DNA from: Dehalococcoidia bacterium
GTDB taxonomy: Bacteria > Chloroflexota > Dehalococcoidia > Lucifugimonadales > JAGWBF01
Length of the DNA: 64,000 nt
Direction of reading: 5' to 3'
Assembly: GCA_034421095.1 (NCBI GenBank)
Contig: DAOUKR010000009.1
Location: 12,694 to 76,693, forward strand
Position 1 is the stretch's first letter. The number at the start of each line of letters is the position of its first letter. The notes beneath the pieces were generated by a model that made no database searches, was not told the DNA's origin, and was given only the letters and a program-made list of their open reading frames with translations. Made by a program: the position numbers and the translations under genes. Below are positions 2,151 through 54,842 of this stretch, one piece after another.

Positions 2151-3119
2151 ATGAGCGAGAAAAGGGTCGGCATCATGGTGGGAGACCCGGTGATTCTGGG
2201 ACCCAATAGCAATGCCGTTCTGGATTACATAGAGAAGGCCGAGAATATGGGAATCTCCGCCGCCTGGTGTACAACAAGCATGGCCGGACTGGACGCCCTG
2301 ACTCTCTTTGCCGGCGCTGCCGGACGCACTCAGCAAATATTATTTGGGACCGCTATTGTAACCTCCTTTCCCCGTCACCCCGTTGTCATGGCCCAACAGA
2401 TCCAGGTGATTAACGAACTGGCTCCGGGCCGCATAAGGCTGGGCGTTGGCACAGGGCACAGAGGCGACATGGAAGCCACCTTTGGCGCCGACTTCCGCGC
2501 CCCCCTGGCCCATCTGGGTGAGTACCTCTACATCCTCAAAACCTTGCTGCAAGAAGGGTCGGTGGACTTCGACGGACGCTATTATAGCTCCCACAGCAGC
2601 ATACAAACTCCCGTGGACGTGCCAGTGATGGCCTCGGCACTGCAGCCAAAGTCCTTCGAGCTATGCGGGGCCGGGGCCGACGGGGCTATCACGTGGGTCT
2701 GCCCCGCGTCTTATCTGCGAGACGTGGCCTTGCCCGCCATGAAAGCGGCGGCGGAGAAAGCCGACCGCCCCACTCCACCACTAATCTACGGCGGGCCGGC
2801 CTGCGTCCACGATAACCCCGACGAGGTGAAAGCAGCCATAAGGAAGGAGCTTGGCCACGTCCGGCTGGCCTTTTACCAGCGTATGCTTGCCGCAGCGGGA
2901 TTTCCCGATGCCTTCAACGGGACGTGGAGCGACGCTATGATAGACGCCGTCACCCTGTCGGGCAGCGAGTCCCAGGTTAAGGAACAGATAGAGAGGCTAT
3001 TCTCCATCGGAGTGACGGAGATTATGGCGTGTCCGGTTGCTGCCGGAAGCGACCGGGAGGCTTCCGTGGAGCGTACGCTGAGGTTGTTGGCAGAGGTCTC
3101 CAACTCTACGAAAGGGTAA
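2151..3119 (+). CDS. Luciferase-like (LLM class) flavin/F420-dependent oxidoreductase
   Basis: The track ORF starts at 2055, but the ATG at 2151 follows GGAGAAGGA, and MSEKRVGIMVG is a typical LLM N-terminus. The fold is LLM-like throughout (GIRLGVGTGH...). Confidence 0.75.
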   Translation: MSEKRVGIMVGDPVILGPNSNAVLDYIEKAENMGISAAWCTTSMAGLDALTLFAGAAGRTQQILFGTAIVTSFPRHPVVMAQQIQVINELAPGRIRLGVGTGHRGDMEATFGADFRAPLAHLGEYLYILKTLLQEGSVDFDGRYYSSHSSIQTPVDVPVMASALQPKSFELCGAGADGAITWVCPASYLRDVALPAMKAAAEKADRPTPPLIYGGPACVHDNPDEVKAAIRKELGHVRLAFYQRMLAAAGFPDAFNGTWSDAMIDAVTLSGSESQVKEQIERLFSIGVTEIMACPVAAGSDREASVERTLRLLAEVSNSTKG

Positions 3120-3123
3120 TCTC

Positions 3124-4173
3124 CTACGCAAAGGTCAGGACCCGCCTGGGGTTCTCCACCAGAATGGCATGTATGTCATCCTCGGTCACGCCCTTGTGAC
3201 GCATCCTGGGAGCGATATTCTCCAGTATGTGAGCGAAGCCATGGCCCCCGTATCGCACCAGACGCACCTTGAAGCAGATGTCATGGGCGATTACAATCCG
3301 GTCTCGATGTCCATCTGCGATGAGCCGCCGGATGAAGCCTATGCGCTGGGCGTCACTGGGTATGTCAATATCCGCGAGGGGATAGTAGGATGATTCCAGG
3401 CCGAACAGGTCATATTCCAGGTAGCAGCCGCTCTGGGCCAACCGGCTAAGGACATCGTAGCTGAAGACGGTGCGATCCAGGTGACCCATAATGGTGCGGC
3501 TAATGTCGGCCCCTGCCTCGGACAATATCTCGATGATTTCCCCGGGGGCCTGCTCGTCCCGGCCCGGGTGGATGAGGATAGCGGCGCCGGTCTCTCTCTG
3601 GGCTATGGCGGCAGCCCGAAGCACCTTCCTCTCGTTGTCGGTCAGGGGCCATGAGCAGCCCAACTCGCCGATGATTCCGGCCTTGACACCGGTATCGTCC
3701 ACACCATCCGTAATTTCTCCCGCGATTTGGGAAGCCAGTTGGGACTCGGTACGCTGGGACATGTCCGAAGGGTGTACCATGTCCACGTAAAAGCCGGCTC
3801 CCATGATGACGTTCAACCCGGTTGCCCGTGCGATGCGTGCCAGGCCCAGGGGGTCCCGTCCGATGCCGACGGTGGTGGCATCAACTATAGTGCTTCCCCC
3901 GGCCATCTTGTAACGCATGGCCTCGCGTATCGCCACGTCCTCATCTATCAAGTTCAAGTTGTCCAGGTTGCTGGTCCAGTTATACTTGATCCATCCCAGG
4001 TTATCCAGGGCAACGGGTTGATACGCCAGCGCCTTCTGGCTGGCCTCTTGTGGCTCCACAAACATGCAGGAGAAATTGATGAGAAGGTGCTCATGGGTCG
4101 TGGTAGCGCCCAGACTGTCCGGGGATACGGGACCGAGCACGGTCTGGGCATGTCCCGATAGCGATGACGACAT
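3124..4173 (-). CDS. Phosphotriesterase-family amidohydrolase (PTE/PHP-like lactonase)
   Basis: 349 aa. The N-terminal metal-binding motif TTHEHLL, later ILIHPG and IAHDI, and the overall length match phosphotriesterase-homology proteins. Confidence 0.8.
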   Translation of the reverse strand: MSSSLSGHAQTVLGPVSPDSLGATTTHEHLLINFSCMFVEPQEASQKALAYQPVALDNLGWIKYNWTSNLDNLNLIDEDVAIREAMRYKMAGGSTIVDATTVGIGRDPLGLARIARATGLNVIMGAGFYVDMVHPSDMSQRTESQLASQIAGEITDGVDDTGVKAGIIGELGCSWPLTDNERKVLRAAAIAQRETGAAILIHPGRDEQAPGEIIEILSEAGADISRTIMGHLDRTVFSYDVLSRLAQSGCYLEYDLFGLESSYYPLADIDIPSDAQRIGFIRRLIADGHRDRIVIAHDICFKVRLVRYGGHGFAHILENIAPRMRHKGVTEDDIHAILVENPRRVLTFA

Positions 4174-4202
4174 ATCAATGCTCCTGTCTAAGATGAAAAC
4201 GT

Positions 4203-5657
4203 CTAACCTACCTCGAAACTTCCACGGCCTTCGTCCAGATACACGGTTGTACCTACACGGGACAAGGTGATTTTCTGCTGGTAAGTGCCTCCACTTACTT
4301 GATGCTCCGACCTGTGGATTTCCGTAGACCAGGCCACTCCCCGGGGGTCTGGGCCGTTCACCAGGGCCTCTCTCAGCACCCGTCCATCCATATCTTCCCC
4401 TCCGGGAATGCCAAGTATCCCCAATATCGTCGGAGAGAGGTCTACGTTGCCTGAGGGGATGTCCAAACTGATTCCTCTCCTGAAGCTAGGCCCGCTGGCA
4501 ATAAGGACGTTCCGTATCTCGTGTGCGCTCATGGAACCGTGCTGGCCCACTCCTGGAGTTCCGCTCGATGAGTAAACGTAACCGGGGAATCCGGCTTGAT
4601 TAGTCCTGTGCTCCCATTTGAAGGACATCGTAATCTCAGGCGCACGGAAGCCCTCGTTGCCGACCAGAACAGCCGGGAGTGTGCCCGGGATACCTGTCGC
4701 AGACTCGGAGGTTATAAGAGGGCCGCACCAGGGTTGCACCATTAGCCACTCTGCCAGCCTCTCTGATACCCTTCGGTCGCTATCATGTACGTAGAACAGC
4801 ACCGAGCCTCCATTAGGGGCTACCACCACCCCGCCGGGTCTGTCACCACACGGGAAACCTGCTTCTCGGACGCGAGCTTCGATGTCTACAACGCCGGTGA
4901 TAGTCGAGTAGCCATGGTCCGAGACGACTATCAAGTCTGTCTCAGCAGATAGGCCATTATCTTCGAGCCAACTAAGAAGTCTGCCTAGCTGCTCATCGGC
5001 GGCATTGATGGCCTTCTTTGCCAACTCCGAGTTGACCCCTTCCGCATGTTGCGCACCGTCCGGTTCCGAGAACCAGATGAGGAGGACCGATGGAGACCGC
5101 TCTGGCAGGAGGTAATTGGTGGTGATGTCAACTGCATGGGCCATCCTCGCTGAGTTCGGTATGCCGTGCTCGGGCCACTGGCCGAAACGGCTTAGAACCT
5201 CATCGTGGAGACTGGACGGTAGGCAGAAGTTGGGGTGGACCGTCGCTCCGCCGGAACGCTCAGCATTGGGGTTATGCAGGTAAGCGTTCCCGCTTGTCCC
5301 TATGCCCACAGCAATGTATTCCTTGTTATGCTGGGAAAGGATGTCAGCTAGAGTAGGGGCGAGCAGGACATGTCCGGTCTTCTTGGCAATCTGTGCTAGC
5401 TGGGGCTCCATGACGGGGAGAGCATGGCCTGGGTCGAAGTCCCTGAAGACAAGTGTATTTCCTGCTATGCCGTGGCCGCCGGGATGTCGGCCCGTTACTA
5501 TGCTTGCTACGTTTGTGCGTGTCACAGTAGGGAACCCGGCGTGATGTCGGTCGAAAATGACCCCCTCGGCAGCCAGCTCCGCCAGGTTAGGCATCAGTTC
5601 GGACGTCACCTGTGAGGGTTGAAGCCCATCGAACACCACTATCAATAAAGGTCTCAT
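4203..5657 (-). CDS. Nucleotide pyrophosphatase/phosphodiesterase (alkaline phosphatase superfamily)
   Basis: I set the start at MRPLLIVVFDGL (cat at 5655-5657). The track's longer ORF runs through the tRNA-Pro gene. FPTVTRTNVASIVTG is a Thr-nucleophile motif, and VVSDHG is a metal site. Confidence 0.75.
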   Translation of the reverse strand: MRPLLIVVFDGLQPSQVTSELMPNLAELAAEGVIFDRHHAGFPTVTRTNVASIVTGRHPGGHGIAGNTLVFRDFDPGHALPVMEPQLAQIAKKTGHVLLAPTLADILSQHNKEYIAVGIGTSGNAYLHNPNAERSGGATVHPNFCLPSSLHDEVLSRFGQWPEHGIPNSARMAHAVDITTNYLLPERSPSVLLIWFSEPDGAQHAEGVNSELAKKAINAADEQLGRLLSWLEDNGLSAETDLIVVSDHGYSTITGVVDIEARVREAGFPCGDRPGGVVVAPNGGSVLFYVHDSDRRVSERLAEWLMVQPWCGPLITSESATGIPGTLPAVLVGNEGFRAPEITMSFKWEHRTNQAGFPGYVYSSSGTPGVGQHGSMSAHEIRNVLIASGPSFRRGISLDIPSGNVDLSPTILGILGIPGGEDMDGRVLREALVNGPDPRGVAWSTEIHRSEHQVSGGTYQQKITLSRVGTTVYLDEGRGSFEVG

Positions 5658-50790: not shown

Positions 50791-50802
50791 GTGAGGAAAA
50801 TA

Positions 50803-51159
50803 ATGAGAACTTTATTGAGGTCAAAGATTCACAGGGCATACGTTACCGACGCCAACCTGGATTACGTTGGAAGCATCGTAATTGACCGGGACCTGATGGA
50901 CAAGGTGGACATGTGGGAGTACGAGAAGGTCCTTATCTGTGACATCACCAACGGCAACCGGTTCGAGACATACGCAATTTACGGCGAGAGAGGGTCCGGC
51001 ATCATATCGGTGCAGGGTGCCGCGGCAAGGCTAGTCGACAAGGGGGACTGCGTCATAATAATGTCCTTCGACGTGACCGATGAGCCGGTAGAGCCGGAGA
51101 TGATTCTGGTGAACGAGCGGAACGAGTTCGTTGAATATCTGGGAAAGGTCAAGGTATGA
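50803..51159 (+). CDS. panD: Aspartate 1-decarboxylase (pyruvoyl-dependent)
   Basis: The ATG at 50803 follows GAGGA. MRTLLRSKIHRAYVTDANLDYVGSIVID is a PanD N-terminus with the G-S self-cleavage site. Confidence 0.9.
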   Translation: MRTLLRSKIHRAYVTDANLDYVGSIVIDRDLMDKVDMWEYEKVLICDITNGNRFETYAIYGERGSGIISVQGAAARLVDKGDCVIIMSFDVTDEPVEPEMILVNERNEFVEYLGKVKV

Positions 51160-51974
51160 GCAGCAGATTCACCGAGCAGGAAACGGAGCGGTATTACGAC
51201 GCCCAAGACGTTATCTATCGCTCGATATGGGACTCGGAAGGGAGCGTCCATTGGGGGGTCTTCGACCAGAGCACTGGTGACGATTTTCTCAAGGGGTGCG
51301 CCAACCTGAACAACATAATGGCGGATAAGGGCCGCATTGACGCCACCTCCAGGGTGTTGGACCTAGGTTGTGGAAGCGGCACCACCGCCATGTGGCTGGC
51401 CGAGGAGCGTAACTGCCGAGTGACAGGAGTAGACCTGAGTGGCGTCCGTATCCAGAACGCCAAGAACGATCTGCAAGCCCGCTCCCAAGAGATGCGGCAG
51501 AACGTTGCCTTTGAGAAGGCCTCTGCCACCGACCTACCTTTCCCCGACGGCTCTTTTACCCATGTATGGAGTCAGGCCGTAATTTACCACGTCCCCGACA
51601 AAGAGGGGACCCTGAAGGAAGCGTACCGGGTGCTGGCCGATGGAGGAATCTTCATCTTCGACGACCTTGTAAAGCCAAAGCAGGACATTAGCGAGTCGGC
51701 ACAGACCTACGTGTATGACCGGCTACTTTTTGACACACCCTTCAGTTTCGAGTCATACAGTGACGCCCTACGGCAGGCGGGGTTCAAGGTGCTCAGTTCC
51801 CAAGACCTCTCCTCTCACCTGAAAAAGAGCTATTCTCTTCTCTCCAGCATGGCTGGCGCAAAAACCGAAGGCCCCATGGATGAATACGAGACCCTGGCAT
51901 TGGCGTACGCAAAGACCGCTCAGGCGATAGAAGACGGTGAACTGGGGTGGGGCCTGTATCTGTGTCAGAAGTGA
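51156..51974 (+). CDS. Class I SAM-dependent methyltransferase, sarcosine/dimethylglycine N-methyltransferase-like
   Basis: The ATG overlaps the panD TGA (ATGA). It has YYD-x-IYRSIWDSEGSVHWGVF, SAM motif VLDLGCGSGT, LPFPDGSFTHVWSQ, GGIFIFDD and a C-terminal GWGLY. This layout recalls the SDMT / geranyl-PP C-MT clade, from memory. Confidence 0.65.
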   Translation: MSSRFTEQETERYYDAQDVIYRSIWDSEGSVHWGVFDQSTGDDFLKGCANLNNIMADKGRIDATSRVLDLGCGSGTTAMWLAEERNCRVTGVDLSGVRIQNAKNDLQARSQEMRQNVAFEKASATDLPFPDGSFTHVWSQAVIYHVPDKEGTLKEAYRVLADGGIFIFDDLVKPKQDISESAQTYVYDRLLFDTPFSFESYSDALRQAGFKVLSSQDLSSHLKKSYSLLSSMAGAKTEGPMDEYETLALAYAKTAQAIEDGELGWGLYLCQK

Positions 51975-52019
51975 GCGGCGTGACGCGGTATCTCTTAGCC
52001 GGTGCTATAGGGAGCAGTG

Positions 52020-52646
52020 ATGGAGAATCTGAATAAAGTCCAATGGGTATACTCGTCCCAGAACAACCAGGAACTGGCGGAACGGTACGACCAATGGGCC
52101 AAGGACTATGACGCCGACCTGGACCAGGACTTCGGCTGGATTGCGCCCCAGCGTGTCGTGGACTTCTTCTCCAAGCACGTGCCCAGGGACGCAAGAATCC
52201 TCGATGCAGGCGCTGGCACAGGCCTGGCAGGAGAGATTCTCAGCAGGCTGGGATACGGGGAGCTAGTAGCTATGGACCTGTCCCAGGGTATGCTGGATGA
52301 AGCCGCGAAGAAGGGCGTCTACCAGGAGTTTCACCGGATGGTCATGGGCGACACCCTGGACTTCCCCTCCGACTCCTTTGATGGGGTGATTACCGTGGGG
52401 GTCCTCACCGTGGGACATGCCCCCGCCAGTTCCCTTGATGAGCTTGTCCGCGTCACCAGGCCGGGCGGCCATATCGCCTTCTCGCTGCGGCCTGACGTGT
52501 ACGAGGAGAACGGCTTCAAGGAGAAGCAGACGGAGTTGGAATCTGCCGGCAAGTGGAAGCTGGCGGAGGTGAGTGAGCCGTTCCAGGCCCTCCCCGTAGG
52601 CGAGCCCGACGTTTTCCACCAGGTCTGGGTGTACCAAGTCAGCTAG
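52020..52646 (+). CDS. Class I SAM-dependent methyltransferase (Methyltransf_11/25-like)
   Basis: The ATG at 52020 follows GGGAG. ILDAGAGTGLAG is SAM motif I, with LVAMDLS and GGHIAFSL. Substrate is unknown. Confidence 0.7.
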   Translation: MENLNKVQWVYSSQNNQELAERYDQWAKDYDADLDQDFGWIAPQRVVDFFSKHVPRDARILDAGAGTGLAGEILSRLGYGELVAMDLSQGMLDEAAKKGVYQEFHRMVMGDTLDFPSDSFDGVITVGVLTVGHAPASSLDELVRVTRPGGHIAFSLRPDVYEENGFKEKQTELESAGKWKLAEVSEPFQALPVGEPDVFHQVWVYQVS

Positions 52647-52789: not shown

Positions 52790-53416
52790 TCAATCCAGGG
52801 GACCTGCCACGATTTTGCCGAAGGTCTTGGGCGCAGTCTCGTCCCGAAAAGGTAGGCTATGGGCGGTTGATTCCCACCCCTCTCCCGTGTCTATCTCTAT
52901 TCCCAGGCCGTCGGCTATCCTCACCATGTAGTTGTAAAGGGCGGTTATGTGGACAATGTCTATGATGTCCTCGTCCGTCCAGCCAACGTCACGTAGCCCC
53001 TGTACGTTCTCCTGCATAACACCGGCCGGGGCTTCGTTGAGAAGCTCGGCGAACTCCAGCATTGCGACCTGCTTTGGAGTCAACCCGGCGTTGTGGTAGT
53101 CGGTCCCTGCCTGTCTCGCAAGCTGGGAGTCGGGGTCCTCGGTACGCAGAAACTCTGCGTGAGCCGTGGTTCAATACTGACACCGGTTGAGGGCCGAGAC
53201 CACCGTGGCAATCATCTGCCTCTCGGCCGGAGTCAACCCTGATTCGCTCTGCATGACATTCCGATTATGGATGGAGAGGGTCTTCATAAGGTGGGGGCGG
53301 AGACTGCTGACCGACATTACGTTGTTAATCGTTCCCCTCGCTTGGAGCGCCTCGTCATACATAGCCTTGAGCTCTCCCCTGGCCTCACCGTATGGAACAG
53401 TCCGCACGTAGGGCAT
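52790..53416 (-). CDS. AhpD/carboxymuconolactone-decarboxylase-family protein, probable selenoprotein (CxxU; Sec codon TGA at 53171-53173)
   Basis: Track ORFs 53171..53416 and 52790..53083 are in the same frame. The joined translation reads ...VVSALNRCQY-U-TTAHAEFLRTEDP...LTPKQVAMLEFAELL, which places the TGA at the second Cys of the family CxxCxxxH motif. A hairpin lies 10 nt downstream. Confidence 0.7.
53144..53160 (-). promoter_or_regulatory. Candidate bacterial SECIS hairpin
   Basis: On the mRNA it reads ACGCAGA-GUU-UCUGCGU, a perfect 7-bp stem with a loop starting with G-U. It begins 10 nt 3' of the in-frame UGA. Confidence 0.55.
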
Positions 53417-53454
53417 ACTGCCACCTCCCGGAACGCACTAGCGGTGTAATCCAA

Positions 53455-54486
53455 TCACTTGAAATTCGGCATTACCTTTTCGGTGAACATCTTCATAGAG
53501 CCAAGGACGCGCTCATAAGGAATCTGCCCGCCCGTATTGAACTCCAGTATCATGCCCGATATGCCCAGTTCCTCCTTGAACTCCTGGATGCGCTCCGTAA
53601 CGTACTCGGGTGTACCGTACATGTACCTTCCGGCTTTCAATAGCTCGCTGTAAGGCATGGTGGCGCTGGCCCGGCTCCTTTCGGCTCGCTCCTCGGTAAG
53701 GGAAAAGCGGCTCGTTATCCGATAGTCATAGTCCTGTTGATGCTTGACGCTGGCCTCAGGCTCGGAGTGGGCCTTCTCGGTGGTCTCCGCCACGTAGACG
53801 GCAAGGCGCATATTTGCGTCGGGCTCGCCCGGATGTCCAGCCTCCTTCCATGCCTTCCGGTACTCTATCAGCTGTTCTTTTAGCTGTGGAATGGGAGCAC
53901 CGGCAAAGAAGGAGATGTTGTACCCCATGCTTCCCAATAGTGGGAAGGTGTCTGCACTTAGAGTACCGATGCGTATGGGCGGGTGGGGCTTCTGATACGG
54001 CTTGGGCACTATGGTAACGTCGTCAAAGTGCCAGTACTGGCCGTGGTGGGAGAAGGTCTCGTTGTTCCACGCCTTCAAGACAACCTCCAGCCCTTCGAAG
54101 AAGCGGTCCCGAGTCTCGGCATATTCCATGTTGAAACCCCGGTAGAACATGGTCAAGGCGCTGCGCCCTATGCCAAACTCGAACCTCCCCTGACTGATGT
54201 GGTCAAGTATCGCGGCTTGCTCGGCCATGTTCAAAGGATGAATCAACGGAACTACAAATACTGCCCCTCCAATCCTTATCCTTTCGGTGCGGGATGCAAT
54301 GGCAGTGCCAATCAGGAGCGGAGAGGACAGCAGGGAGCGTTCGGGGGCGAAGTGGTATTCCGCCAGCCAGACGGAGTCGAACCCCATCTTCTCCGCCATC
54401 ACTGCCTCGTCCAGATGCTCCATGTAGGCGTCGTTTTGAGTCTTACCTTCCCGCACGTGGAACTCGGTGAATATGCCGAACTCCAT
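53455..54486 (-). CDS. Luciferase-like (LLM class) flavin-dependent monooxygenase
   Basis: Start at MEFGIFTEF (cat at 54484-54486, AAGGAG upstream). The track's 114-aa N-terminal extension is translated repeat/intergenic sequence. GFDSVWLAEYHF is the typical LLM motif. Confidence 0.8.
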   Translation of the reverse strand: MEFGIFTEFHVREGKTQNDAYMEHLDEAVMAEKMGFDSVWLAEYHFAPERSLLSSPLLIGTAIASRTERIRIGGAVFVVPLIHPLNMAEQAAILDHISQGRFEFGIGRSALTMFYRGFNMEYAETRDRFFEGLEVVLKAWNNETFSHHGQYWHFDDVTIVPKPYQKPHPPIRIGTLSADTFPLLGSMGYNISFFAGAPIPQLKEQLIEYRKAWKEAGHPGEPDANMRLAVYVAETTEKAHSEPEASVKHQQDYDYRITSRFSLTEERAERSRASATMPYSELLKAGRYMYGTPEYVTERIQEFKEELGISGMILEFNTGGQIPYERVLGSMKMFTEKVMPNFK

Positions 54487-54666
54487 AAATTTCTCCTTTC
54501 GTTTCCCTTTTGCAGGTTTGTTACCGAAGATTCCCTGCTTCAGATTGCGCCTGCGTATGCGAAGAGCACTCGCGTCCGAAGCCGGGACTGGCTTGACATT
54601 AAAGAGTGTAGTAGGACGCCAAGGCTCTGTCAATCCCCATACCCTTTTGAGAAAGCTCTGGATAAC

Positions 54667-54693
54667 GTCATTCCGACCTTGAGCCGGAATGAC
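54667..54693. repeat. Short palindromic repeat hairpin (GTCATTCCG...CGGAATGAC type)
   Basis: GTCATTCCG-accttgagc-CGGAATGAC. It is related by its ATTCC/GGAAT arms to the hairpins at 56866-57070. Confidence 0.55.
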
Positions 54694-54735
54694 GAGGGTG
54701 GGGGTATGGCGCAGCGGGGGAGGAAGCGATGTGGC

Positions 54736-54772
54736 TGAAAAACTACTAGGGCGACCATTTCTGGTCGCCCTA
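54736..54772 (-). terminator. Intrinsic terminator after the substrate-binding protein gene
   Basis: On the minus strand TAGGGCGACCA-GAAA-TGGTCGCCCTA forms an 11-bp perfect stem, followed by GTAGTTTTTC. Confidence 0.65.
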
Positions 54773-54842
54773 GGGCTAACGTCTTCTTTGAGGCGTCGTG
54801 GGCTTCCGGTGCTTACGTCACCTCGCATCCAACCTGGTGTAC

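Follow-up and report, generated by a model that had tools for sequence, protein, structure and literature searches.

The minus strand of the window, by which we mean the whole 64-kb stretch of DNA analysed here, carries two consecutive open reading frames (53171..53416 and 52790..53170) that meet at an in-frame TGA codon. Such a locus raises the question of whether we are dealing with two genes, with the remains of one gene that acquired a nonsense mutation, or with one gene whose TGA is translated. The original prediction opted for the last of these and proposed an AhpD-like protein with selenocysteine (Sec) at its redox site. Our analysis leads to the same reading with a probability of about 0.9: as far as can be judged from sequence, the locus is one 208-residue AhpD-like gene of the TIGR01926/COG2128 type, whose UGA would be decoded as Sec by means of a hairpin acting as a SECIS element.

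A single reading frame extends across the TGA

The features of the gene are as follows.

52790..53416, minus strand: putative AhpD-like (TIGR01926) selenoprotein gene, complete, with 208 codons of which one is the Sec-UGA, followed by the terminal TGA at 52790-52792
53424..53428, minus strand: Shine-Dalgarno-like GGAGG read from the sequence, presumably functional, 7 nt 5' of the ATG at 53414-53416
53171..53173, minus strand: in-frame TGA, codon 82, putatively read as selenocysteine given TGA in orthologs versus Cys in homologs and PDB structures
53159..53182, minus strand: active-site motif C79-Q-Y-U82-T-T-A-H86 (CxxUxxxH), located by the conserved Cys and His columns

From the ATG at 53416-53414, the minus-strand frame reaches the TGA at 53173-53171 and remains open for 126 further codons, up to the TGA at 52792-52790. 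The two open reading frames do lie in one frame and are joined at the TGA at 53171-53173, as had been predicted, and the predicted length of 208 aa corresponds to 208 sense codons with the TGA counted. Read directly from the minus strand, the translation across the TGA is ...SALNRCQY-TGA-TTAHAEFLRTEDPDSQLARQAGTDYHNAGLTPKQVAMLEFAELL... Both this translation and the alignment of homologs confirmed that the TGA stands in place of the second Cys of a C-x-x-C-x-x-x-H motif. An ORF check revealed no gene overlapping 52790..53416 in another frame.

Of the 51 long open frames in the window, 23 end in TGA, which makes it the most frequent ordinary stop and indicates that the genetic code is not reassigned. 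Furthermore, a scan of the window for other TGA-interrupted genes with at least 45 codons on each side, and another for Cys-adjacent TGA codons elsewhere in the window, gave nothing convincing beyond the AhpD-like gene.

The joined product belongs to the TIGR01926 family

Profile searches were carried out with the joined 208-aa product, in which Cys was substituted for the stop at position 82. The product matched TIGR01926 ("peroxidase-related enzyme") with 133.1 bits against a cutoff of 81.8, its residues 2-173 aligning with model positions 1-173 of 178. It also matched Pfam PF02627 (CMD) with 51.2 bits against a gathering cutoff of 23, which places it in the CMD/AhpD superfamily, as well as the AhpD core-domain model TIGR00778. 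Alignment of the joined translation to CMD/AhpD models had been suggested as a check of the prediction, and it identified a full-length TIGR01926/CMD member. Furthermore, the PDB relatives 3C1L, 2PRR, 2PFX, 6K40 and 2OYO aligned continuously across the TGA over residues 10-174 (E = 1e-25 to 3e-19). The two PDB alignments that were printed, those of 3C1L and 2PRR, have C-x-Y-C-x-x-A-H at the active site, and the nearest solved relatives are single-domain proteins that span both halves of the gene. Overall, the gene displays every sequence-level hallmark of the AhpD-like CxxU selenoprotein family (TIGR01926/COG2128).

Two other assignments were considered and rejected. The product is not a canonical AhpD of the Mycobacterium tuberculosis type, as it scored 19.1 bits against a TIGR00777 cutoff of 191.95 and aligned with PDB 1GU9 at E = 0.089. 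Nor is it a member of NF041238 (AhpD_rel_CFYUT), for which the score was 69.7 bits against 175 and the match covered only model positions 201-339 of 357.

We also observed that the product of 52790..53416 has a below-threshold match to the PA26/sestrin Pfam family (26 bits vs 29.4), along with PDB matches to Sestrin-2 (E = 0.002). A distant homology between sestrins and AhpD-family proteins is already known and explains this match.

The TGA is conserved in orthologs and aligns with Cys in distant homologs

An ortholog scan limited to one genome per species yielded 18 full-length loci in Dehalococcoidia/Chloroflexota MAGs, with 53-84% aa identity. Adding the window, TGA was found at the same column in 19 of 19 genes, in the context C-x-Y-TGA-T, and TAA or TAG never occurred there; the true terminators of these 19 genes are 8 TGA, 9 TAG and 2 TAA. 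Ten distant homologs, from Rhizobiales, Vulcanimicrobiaceae, Acidimicrobiales, Pseudoalteromonadaceae and Anaerolineales, have TGC (Cys) at the TGA column. The proposed check of this column hence showed that every close ortholog has TGA there, and that distant homologs and solved structures have Cys. The motif's Cys and His positions are conserved across the 19 Sec-type sequences, the 10 Cys-type loci in which the motif was found and the 2 PDB relatives with printed alignments.

The orthologs have kept the protein sequence immediately after the TGA, T-x-[A/S/E]-H-A with the catalytic His86, and the 126 codons 3' of the TGA are intact in all 19. This downstream part is under purifying selection, with dN/dS values (Nei-Gojobori) of 0.06-0.23 compared to 0.05-0.09 upstream in most pairs, dS reaching or being near saturation. 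The first in-frame restart codon after the TGA lies at +2 to +37 codons across the orthologs, is devoid of a Shine-Dalgarno sequence and is not conserved. The original prediction had warned that the family might normally end at the TGA or that close relatives might carry additional disabling mutations; relatives continue past the TGA, and no such mutations were found. Finally, a public Logan assembly (L032), 100% identical over 11.5 kb, has the TGA as well.

These observations bear on three other explanations of the stop. Since a single-base change makes TGA from TGC or TGT, the locus might be a pseudogene, that is, an AhpD-like gene with a Cys-to-TGA nonsense mutation and a decaying downstream part, and the related locus L025 does contain a truly decayed copy, in which frameshifts occur and the motif is no longer intact. 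However, real decay as seen in L025 looks different from what we observed here, where the same TGA persists in all 19 orthologs at near-saturated synonymous sites and is followed by intact, constrained codons. Conservation of the TGA in orthologs together with the dN/dS values effectively refutes the pseudogene, which we regard as very improbable. Alternatively, translation could stop at the TGA to give an 81-aa protein, and a second protein could arise by re-initiation downstream. Gene callers do report an 81-aa and a 90-aa product, and dozens of database entries of ~115-132 aa correspond to C-terminal fragments, but the position of the restart codon is variable and lacks a Shine-Dalgarno sequence, residues directly after the TGA, including His86, are conserved as protein, and solved homologs form a single domain over both halves. 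Two separate proteins would also part Cys79 from His86, and we give this arrangement hardly any credence. As for a sequencing or assembly error, the window is metagenomic and L032 may share its reads; yet the identical TGA appears in that separate Logan assembly and recurs in 18 other genomes, which come from many projects, and its presence in the orthologs already refutes an error, the chance of which is negligible. One continuous gene with a translated UGA is the reading that we retain.

A conserved and covarying hairpin follows the UGA

Two structural features were located 3' of the UGA.

53144..53160, minus strand: putative core of a bacterial SECIS, made of a 7-bp stem ACGCAGA/UCUGCGU that closes a 3-nt loop GUU and starts at UGA+10 nt
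53137..53169, minus strand: possible lower-stem extension CC.CGG / CCG.GG, from the MFE structure of the window sequence only

The predicted hairpin ACGCAGA-GUU-UCUGCGU is present at 53160-53144, its stem beginning at UGA+10 nt and its loop at UGA+17 nt. The lower-stem extension (53137..53169) is weak because its register is not kept across the orthologs. Taken alone, the hairpin of the window is no better than chance: the 67-nt fold gave a z-score of -0.99, and its stability was equalled or exceeded by 35 of 200 shuffled sequences. Only comparison makes it significant, namely conservation, covariation and suppressed synonymous change over 19-22 homologous loci.

Covariation was assessed on 16 orthologous sites aligned with 3 paralogous ones. 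RNAalifold recovered exactly the 7-bp helix from this 19-site alignment, with 94.7% of the alignment cells paired in the hairpin stem and compensatory double changes in 4 of the 7 stem pairs (12 cells). Neither the observed covariation score nor the observed percentage paired was matched by any of 500 shuffles, and pairing fell to 19-53% when the 3' arm was slid by 1-3 nt. G occupies the first loop position without exception, although this is the wobble position of a codon for which the encoded residue is E, T, Q or G depending on the sequence. Furthermore, the stem codons Ala87 and Arg91 showed the lowest synonymous entropy among 67 conserved degenerate codons. Ala87 is encoded by GCA in 15 of 16 sequences, whereas GCC dominates elsewhere, and Arg91 by CGT in 14 of 15 sequences, whereas Arg codons elsewhere are mixed. 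Cys-containing homologs are devoid of this hairpin. The hairpin put forward as a SECIS candidate is conserved with covariation across orthologs and paralogs, which upholds its candidacy.

Published features of bacterial SECIS elements include an apical loop that is small and has a G in it (PMC1088965), and the arrangement found here, a UGA followed after 10 nt by a hairpin with a G in its small apical loop, is SECIS-like in this respect. The 3-nt loop is small for a SECIS, and the 17-nt core is unusually compact. Rfam searches of the whole window at the gathering threshold, or of 53050-53250 at a permissive E-value, revealed no SECIS-type match and returned only a chance snoRNA match. In the orthologs L006 and L012, the 7-bp stem is broken by C-C mismatches at two stem positions. 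These two loci have, at UGA+13..+30, a longer alternative stem of the CCUUGCC.CAC / GUGGUGAGG type that closes an 11-nt loop and may represent a variant SECIS.

Proposed decoding of the UGA and probable selenium-user context

The scheme that we propose for Sec insertion, substrate and reductant draws on analogy with known systems. From known bacterial Sec biology, the UGA at codon 82 would be decoded as Sec: the 17-nt mRNA hairpin, with G as the first base of its loop, would serve as a bacterial SECIS and recruit SelB-GTP-Sec-tRNA(Sec) as the ribosome reaches the UGA, Sec would be inserted at position 82, and translation would continue through the remaining 126 codons. By homology, the product would have the site C79-x-x-U82-x-x-x-H86, with Sec replacing the second Cys of CxxC, and could act as a peroxidase or as a disulfide/sulfenate reductase, the selenolate attacking a peroxide or an oxidised partner protein. 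A selenenyl-sulfide between Cys79 and Sec82 would then form and be re-reduced by some thiol system. Sec generally occupies the attacking position. In studies of M. tuberculosis AhpD, the second Cys of CxxC (Cys133) is reportedly the attacking nucleophile, which fits this rule.

We searched for the decoding machinery. With the E. coli SelA, SelB and SelD queries, tblastn gave no match to selA, selB or selD, either in the 64-kb window or in related loci totalling ~200 kb, and ARAGORN detected no tRNA-Sec in the window or in 21 related loci, the tRNAs of the window being tRNA-Pro and tRNA-Asp only. The DNA searched covers little of any one genome, and missing sel genes were therefore not counted as absence. 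One of the orthologs (L007) is located on contig DCAE01000082.1 of Dehalococcoidia bacterium UBA1141. BSepDB, which assigns a Sec biosynthetic system when a species has two or more of SelA, SelB and SelD, places UBA1141 among the largest bacterial selenoproteomes, with 49 selenoproteins (PMC13326102). This listing speaks indirectly for Sec machinery, as do the several genomes with more than one TGA-containing copy and the divergent paralog next to the primary copy in L006, L012 and L025. Regarding the wider group, the observations on Sec in Chloroflexi in PMC4959059 are of a general kind only, PMC5424206 held nothing relevant to alternative UGA decoding in Dehalococcoidia, and a literature search for selenoproteins in SAR202 found no papers. 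The AhpD-like gene would mark the source organism as a probable selenium user.

A translated UGA could also receive a standard amino acid, either Cys through a Sec-like or suppressor tRNA or Trp through a near-cognate tRNA, possibly with stimulation by the hairpin. Comparative data of this kind tell that the codon is translated and not which residue it specifies, Sec machinery was not seen in the window and related loci, and natural cases of Sec-to-Cys recoding by tRNA(Sec)-like tRNAs have been reported in a few bacteria. Nevertheless, the column is a redox Cys in homologs, which forms the classic Sec/Cys pair, and TGC, although one mutation away, never appears in the 19 orthologs or 3 paralogs. 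In addition, the succession of UGA, 10 nt and a hairpin with a loop G fits the published features of bacterial SECIS elements (PMC1088965), the AhpD-like family is a catalogued selenoprotein family, and BSepDB credits a genome that bears an ortholog with a Sec system and 49 selenoproteins. We therefore consider a standard amino acid improbable and favor Sec at position 82.

Paralogs and public annotation of the gene

A divergent AhpD-like selenoprotein paralog of 184-187 aa was found in L006 (748..1302, minus strand), L012 (1658..2212, minus strand) and L025 (1688..2251, minus strand), about 1-2 kb from the primary copy and on the opposite strand. This paralog matched TIGR01926 with 111.8 bits and has the motif C-R-Y-TGA-T-M-S/A-H. 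Its hairpin is placed and shaped as in the primary copy (UGA+10 nt, 7 bp, GUU loop) and has a different stem, ACGGAGG/CCUCCGU. In L025, the primary copy (3001..3610) is a true pseudogene, disrupted by multiple frameshifts and stops and without an intact CxxU motif, and the adjacent paralog is intact and has kept its TGA. L001 and L003 are two TGA-containing copies located ~590 kb apart on the closed Dehalococcoidia chromosome OZ244792.1, with 84% and 69% identity to the window protein, respectively. The AhpD-like selenoprotein family is expanded within genomes.

That gene callers would report this locus in fragments had been foreseen, and the gene calls of the L032 Logan assembly (3656..4282) indeed comprise 81-aa and 90-aa products. 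Likewise, the database relatives (P0001-P0046) are almost all C-terminal fragments of about 115-132 aa, and the NCBI entry 'peroxidase-related enzyme [Dehalococcoidia bacterium]' has 130 aa. The main value of the present analysis concerns annotation, as split gene calls would cause this clade of redox enzymes to be under-counted. Furthermore, the 19 orthologs and 3 paralogs provide a clean set of compact coding-region SECIS candidates with covariation that could help train SECIS predictors.

Association with LLM-class oxidoreductase genes

One neighboring gene recurs at the related loci.

53455..54486, minus strand: gene for an LLM-class (luciferase-like) flavin/F420 oxidoreductase (PF00296; called with 343 aa)

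In the window, the stop of the LLM gene lies 38 nt before the start of the AhpD-like gene; judging from this spacing, the two genes are probable operon partners that may be cotranscribed. The mechanical ORF at this position (53455..54828, minus strand, 457 aa) includes a low-complexity N-terminal extension of about 114 aa, and the homologous LLM protein and the public gene call begin at MEFGIF (54486).

Of 20 related loci, 15 (L001, L003-L005, L008-L015 and L017-L019) have an LLM-class (Bac_luciferase) gene no more than 3 kb away from the AhpD-like gene. It shares the strand of the AhpD-like gene in the window and L001, where it lies directly upstream, and in the L008-L017 clade, where it comes shortly downstream; in L003 and L004 it is upstream and on the opposite strand. 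The LLM paralogs are 24-30% identical to one another, except for L001 at 96%, and none of the LLM proteins reached an NCBIfam subfamily cutoff. This variety of paralogs and orientations could mean that the pairing was assembled or kept repeatedly. The LLM family is expanded in marine SAR202-type Dehalococcoidia. The adjacency may reflect a functional pairing, and it may equally be a by-product of the many LLM paralogs. An AhpD-like selenoprotein with a minimal 17-nt triloop SECIS that serves as a dedicated redox partner of LLM oxidoreductases in marine Dehalococcoidia is a speculative and, in our estimation, unlikely extension of these data; if true, the role of the selenoprotein might be to clear peroxides or peroxy-adducts that these oxygenases produce, or to recycle a thiol cofactor for them.

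On the other side of the AhpD-like gene and convergent with it, 50791..52646 (plus strand) contains panD (aspartate 1-decarboxylase) and two genes for SAM-dependent methyltransferases (272 aa and 209 aa). panD overlaps the start of the next gene by 4 nt.

Comparison with known systems

The SECIS of E. coli fdhF is the prototype of these elements, with a minimal hairpin of ~17 nt located ~11 nt from the UGA and an essential loop G. Like the fdhF element, the putative SECIS described here is a stem-loop that follows the UGA directly on its 3' side, within the coding sequence. The fdhF SECIS has a longer stem, a larger GGUC-type loop and a bulged U, whereas the element described here has a 3-nt loop and no bulge.

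Among solved proteins, DR1765 of Deinococcus radiodurans (PDB 6K40), 3C1L, 2PRR, 2PFX and 2OYO share the subfamily, the fold (by sequence) and the C-x-Y-C/U-x-x-A-H motif with the product described here; they use Cys where this gene would use Sec, and identity is only about 30-40%. A DR1765 mutant is sensitive to H2O2, and its complementation needs the cysteines of CxxC (PMC8945050). NF041238 (AhpD_rel_CFYUT), an 'alkylhydroperoxidase-related (seleno)protein' that corresponds to 'hypothetical protein 1' of the Sargasso Sea set, has C-F-Y-U-T where our gene has C-Q-Y-U-T, and its C-terminal AhpD-like domain is homologous; unlike our product, it is ~357 aa long with an extra N-terminal region. 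M. tuberculosis AhpD (TIGR00777; PDB 1KNC, 1GU9), the mechanistic paradigm, reduces AhpC and is re-reduced by lipoamide-linked enzymes (PMC8945050). It shares the CMD/AhpD superfamily and the CxxCxxxH motif with the protein described here but contains Cys rather than Sec and is only a marginal sequence match. No ahpC neighbor of the AhpD-like gene was seen at this locus.

The closest system is the AhpD-like selenoprotein family itself, which the original prediction rightly took to be a known bacterial family (PMC1088965, PMC2398784, PMC13188914). AhpD-like (COG2128) CxxU selenoproteins were first reported by Zhang, Fomenko & Gladyshev in 2005, from 27 Sargasso Sea sequences (PMC1088965), and were found in complete genomes in 2006 (PMC1794560). 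In the GOS data of 2008, 'AhpD-like 1' comprised 299 sequences and was the fourth most abundant selenoprotein family (PMC2398784), and a 2026 review has the entry "AhpD-like protein | TIGR01926 | CxxU" (PMC13188914). With a family known since 2005, the gene is a mis-annotated further member, an annotation fix rather than a discovery, and it opens no new question in selenoprotein biology. It shares with this family the HMM assignment, a CxxU motif with Sec in place of the second Cys, a hairpin with a G in its small loop directly downstream, widespread Cys homologs and an occurrence in marine and environmental bacteria. Nothing essential differs: what characterizes the present case is the Dehalococcoidia clade, the split public gene calls, and the 17-nt core with its 3-nt loop.
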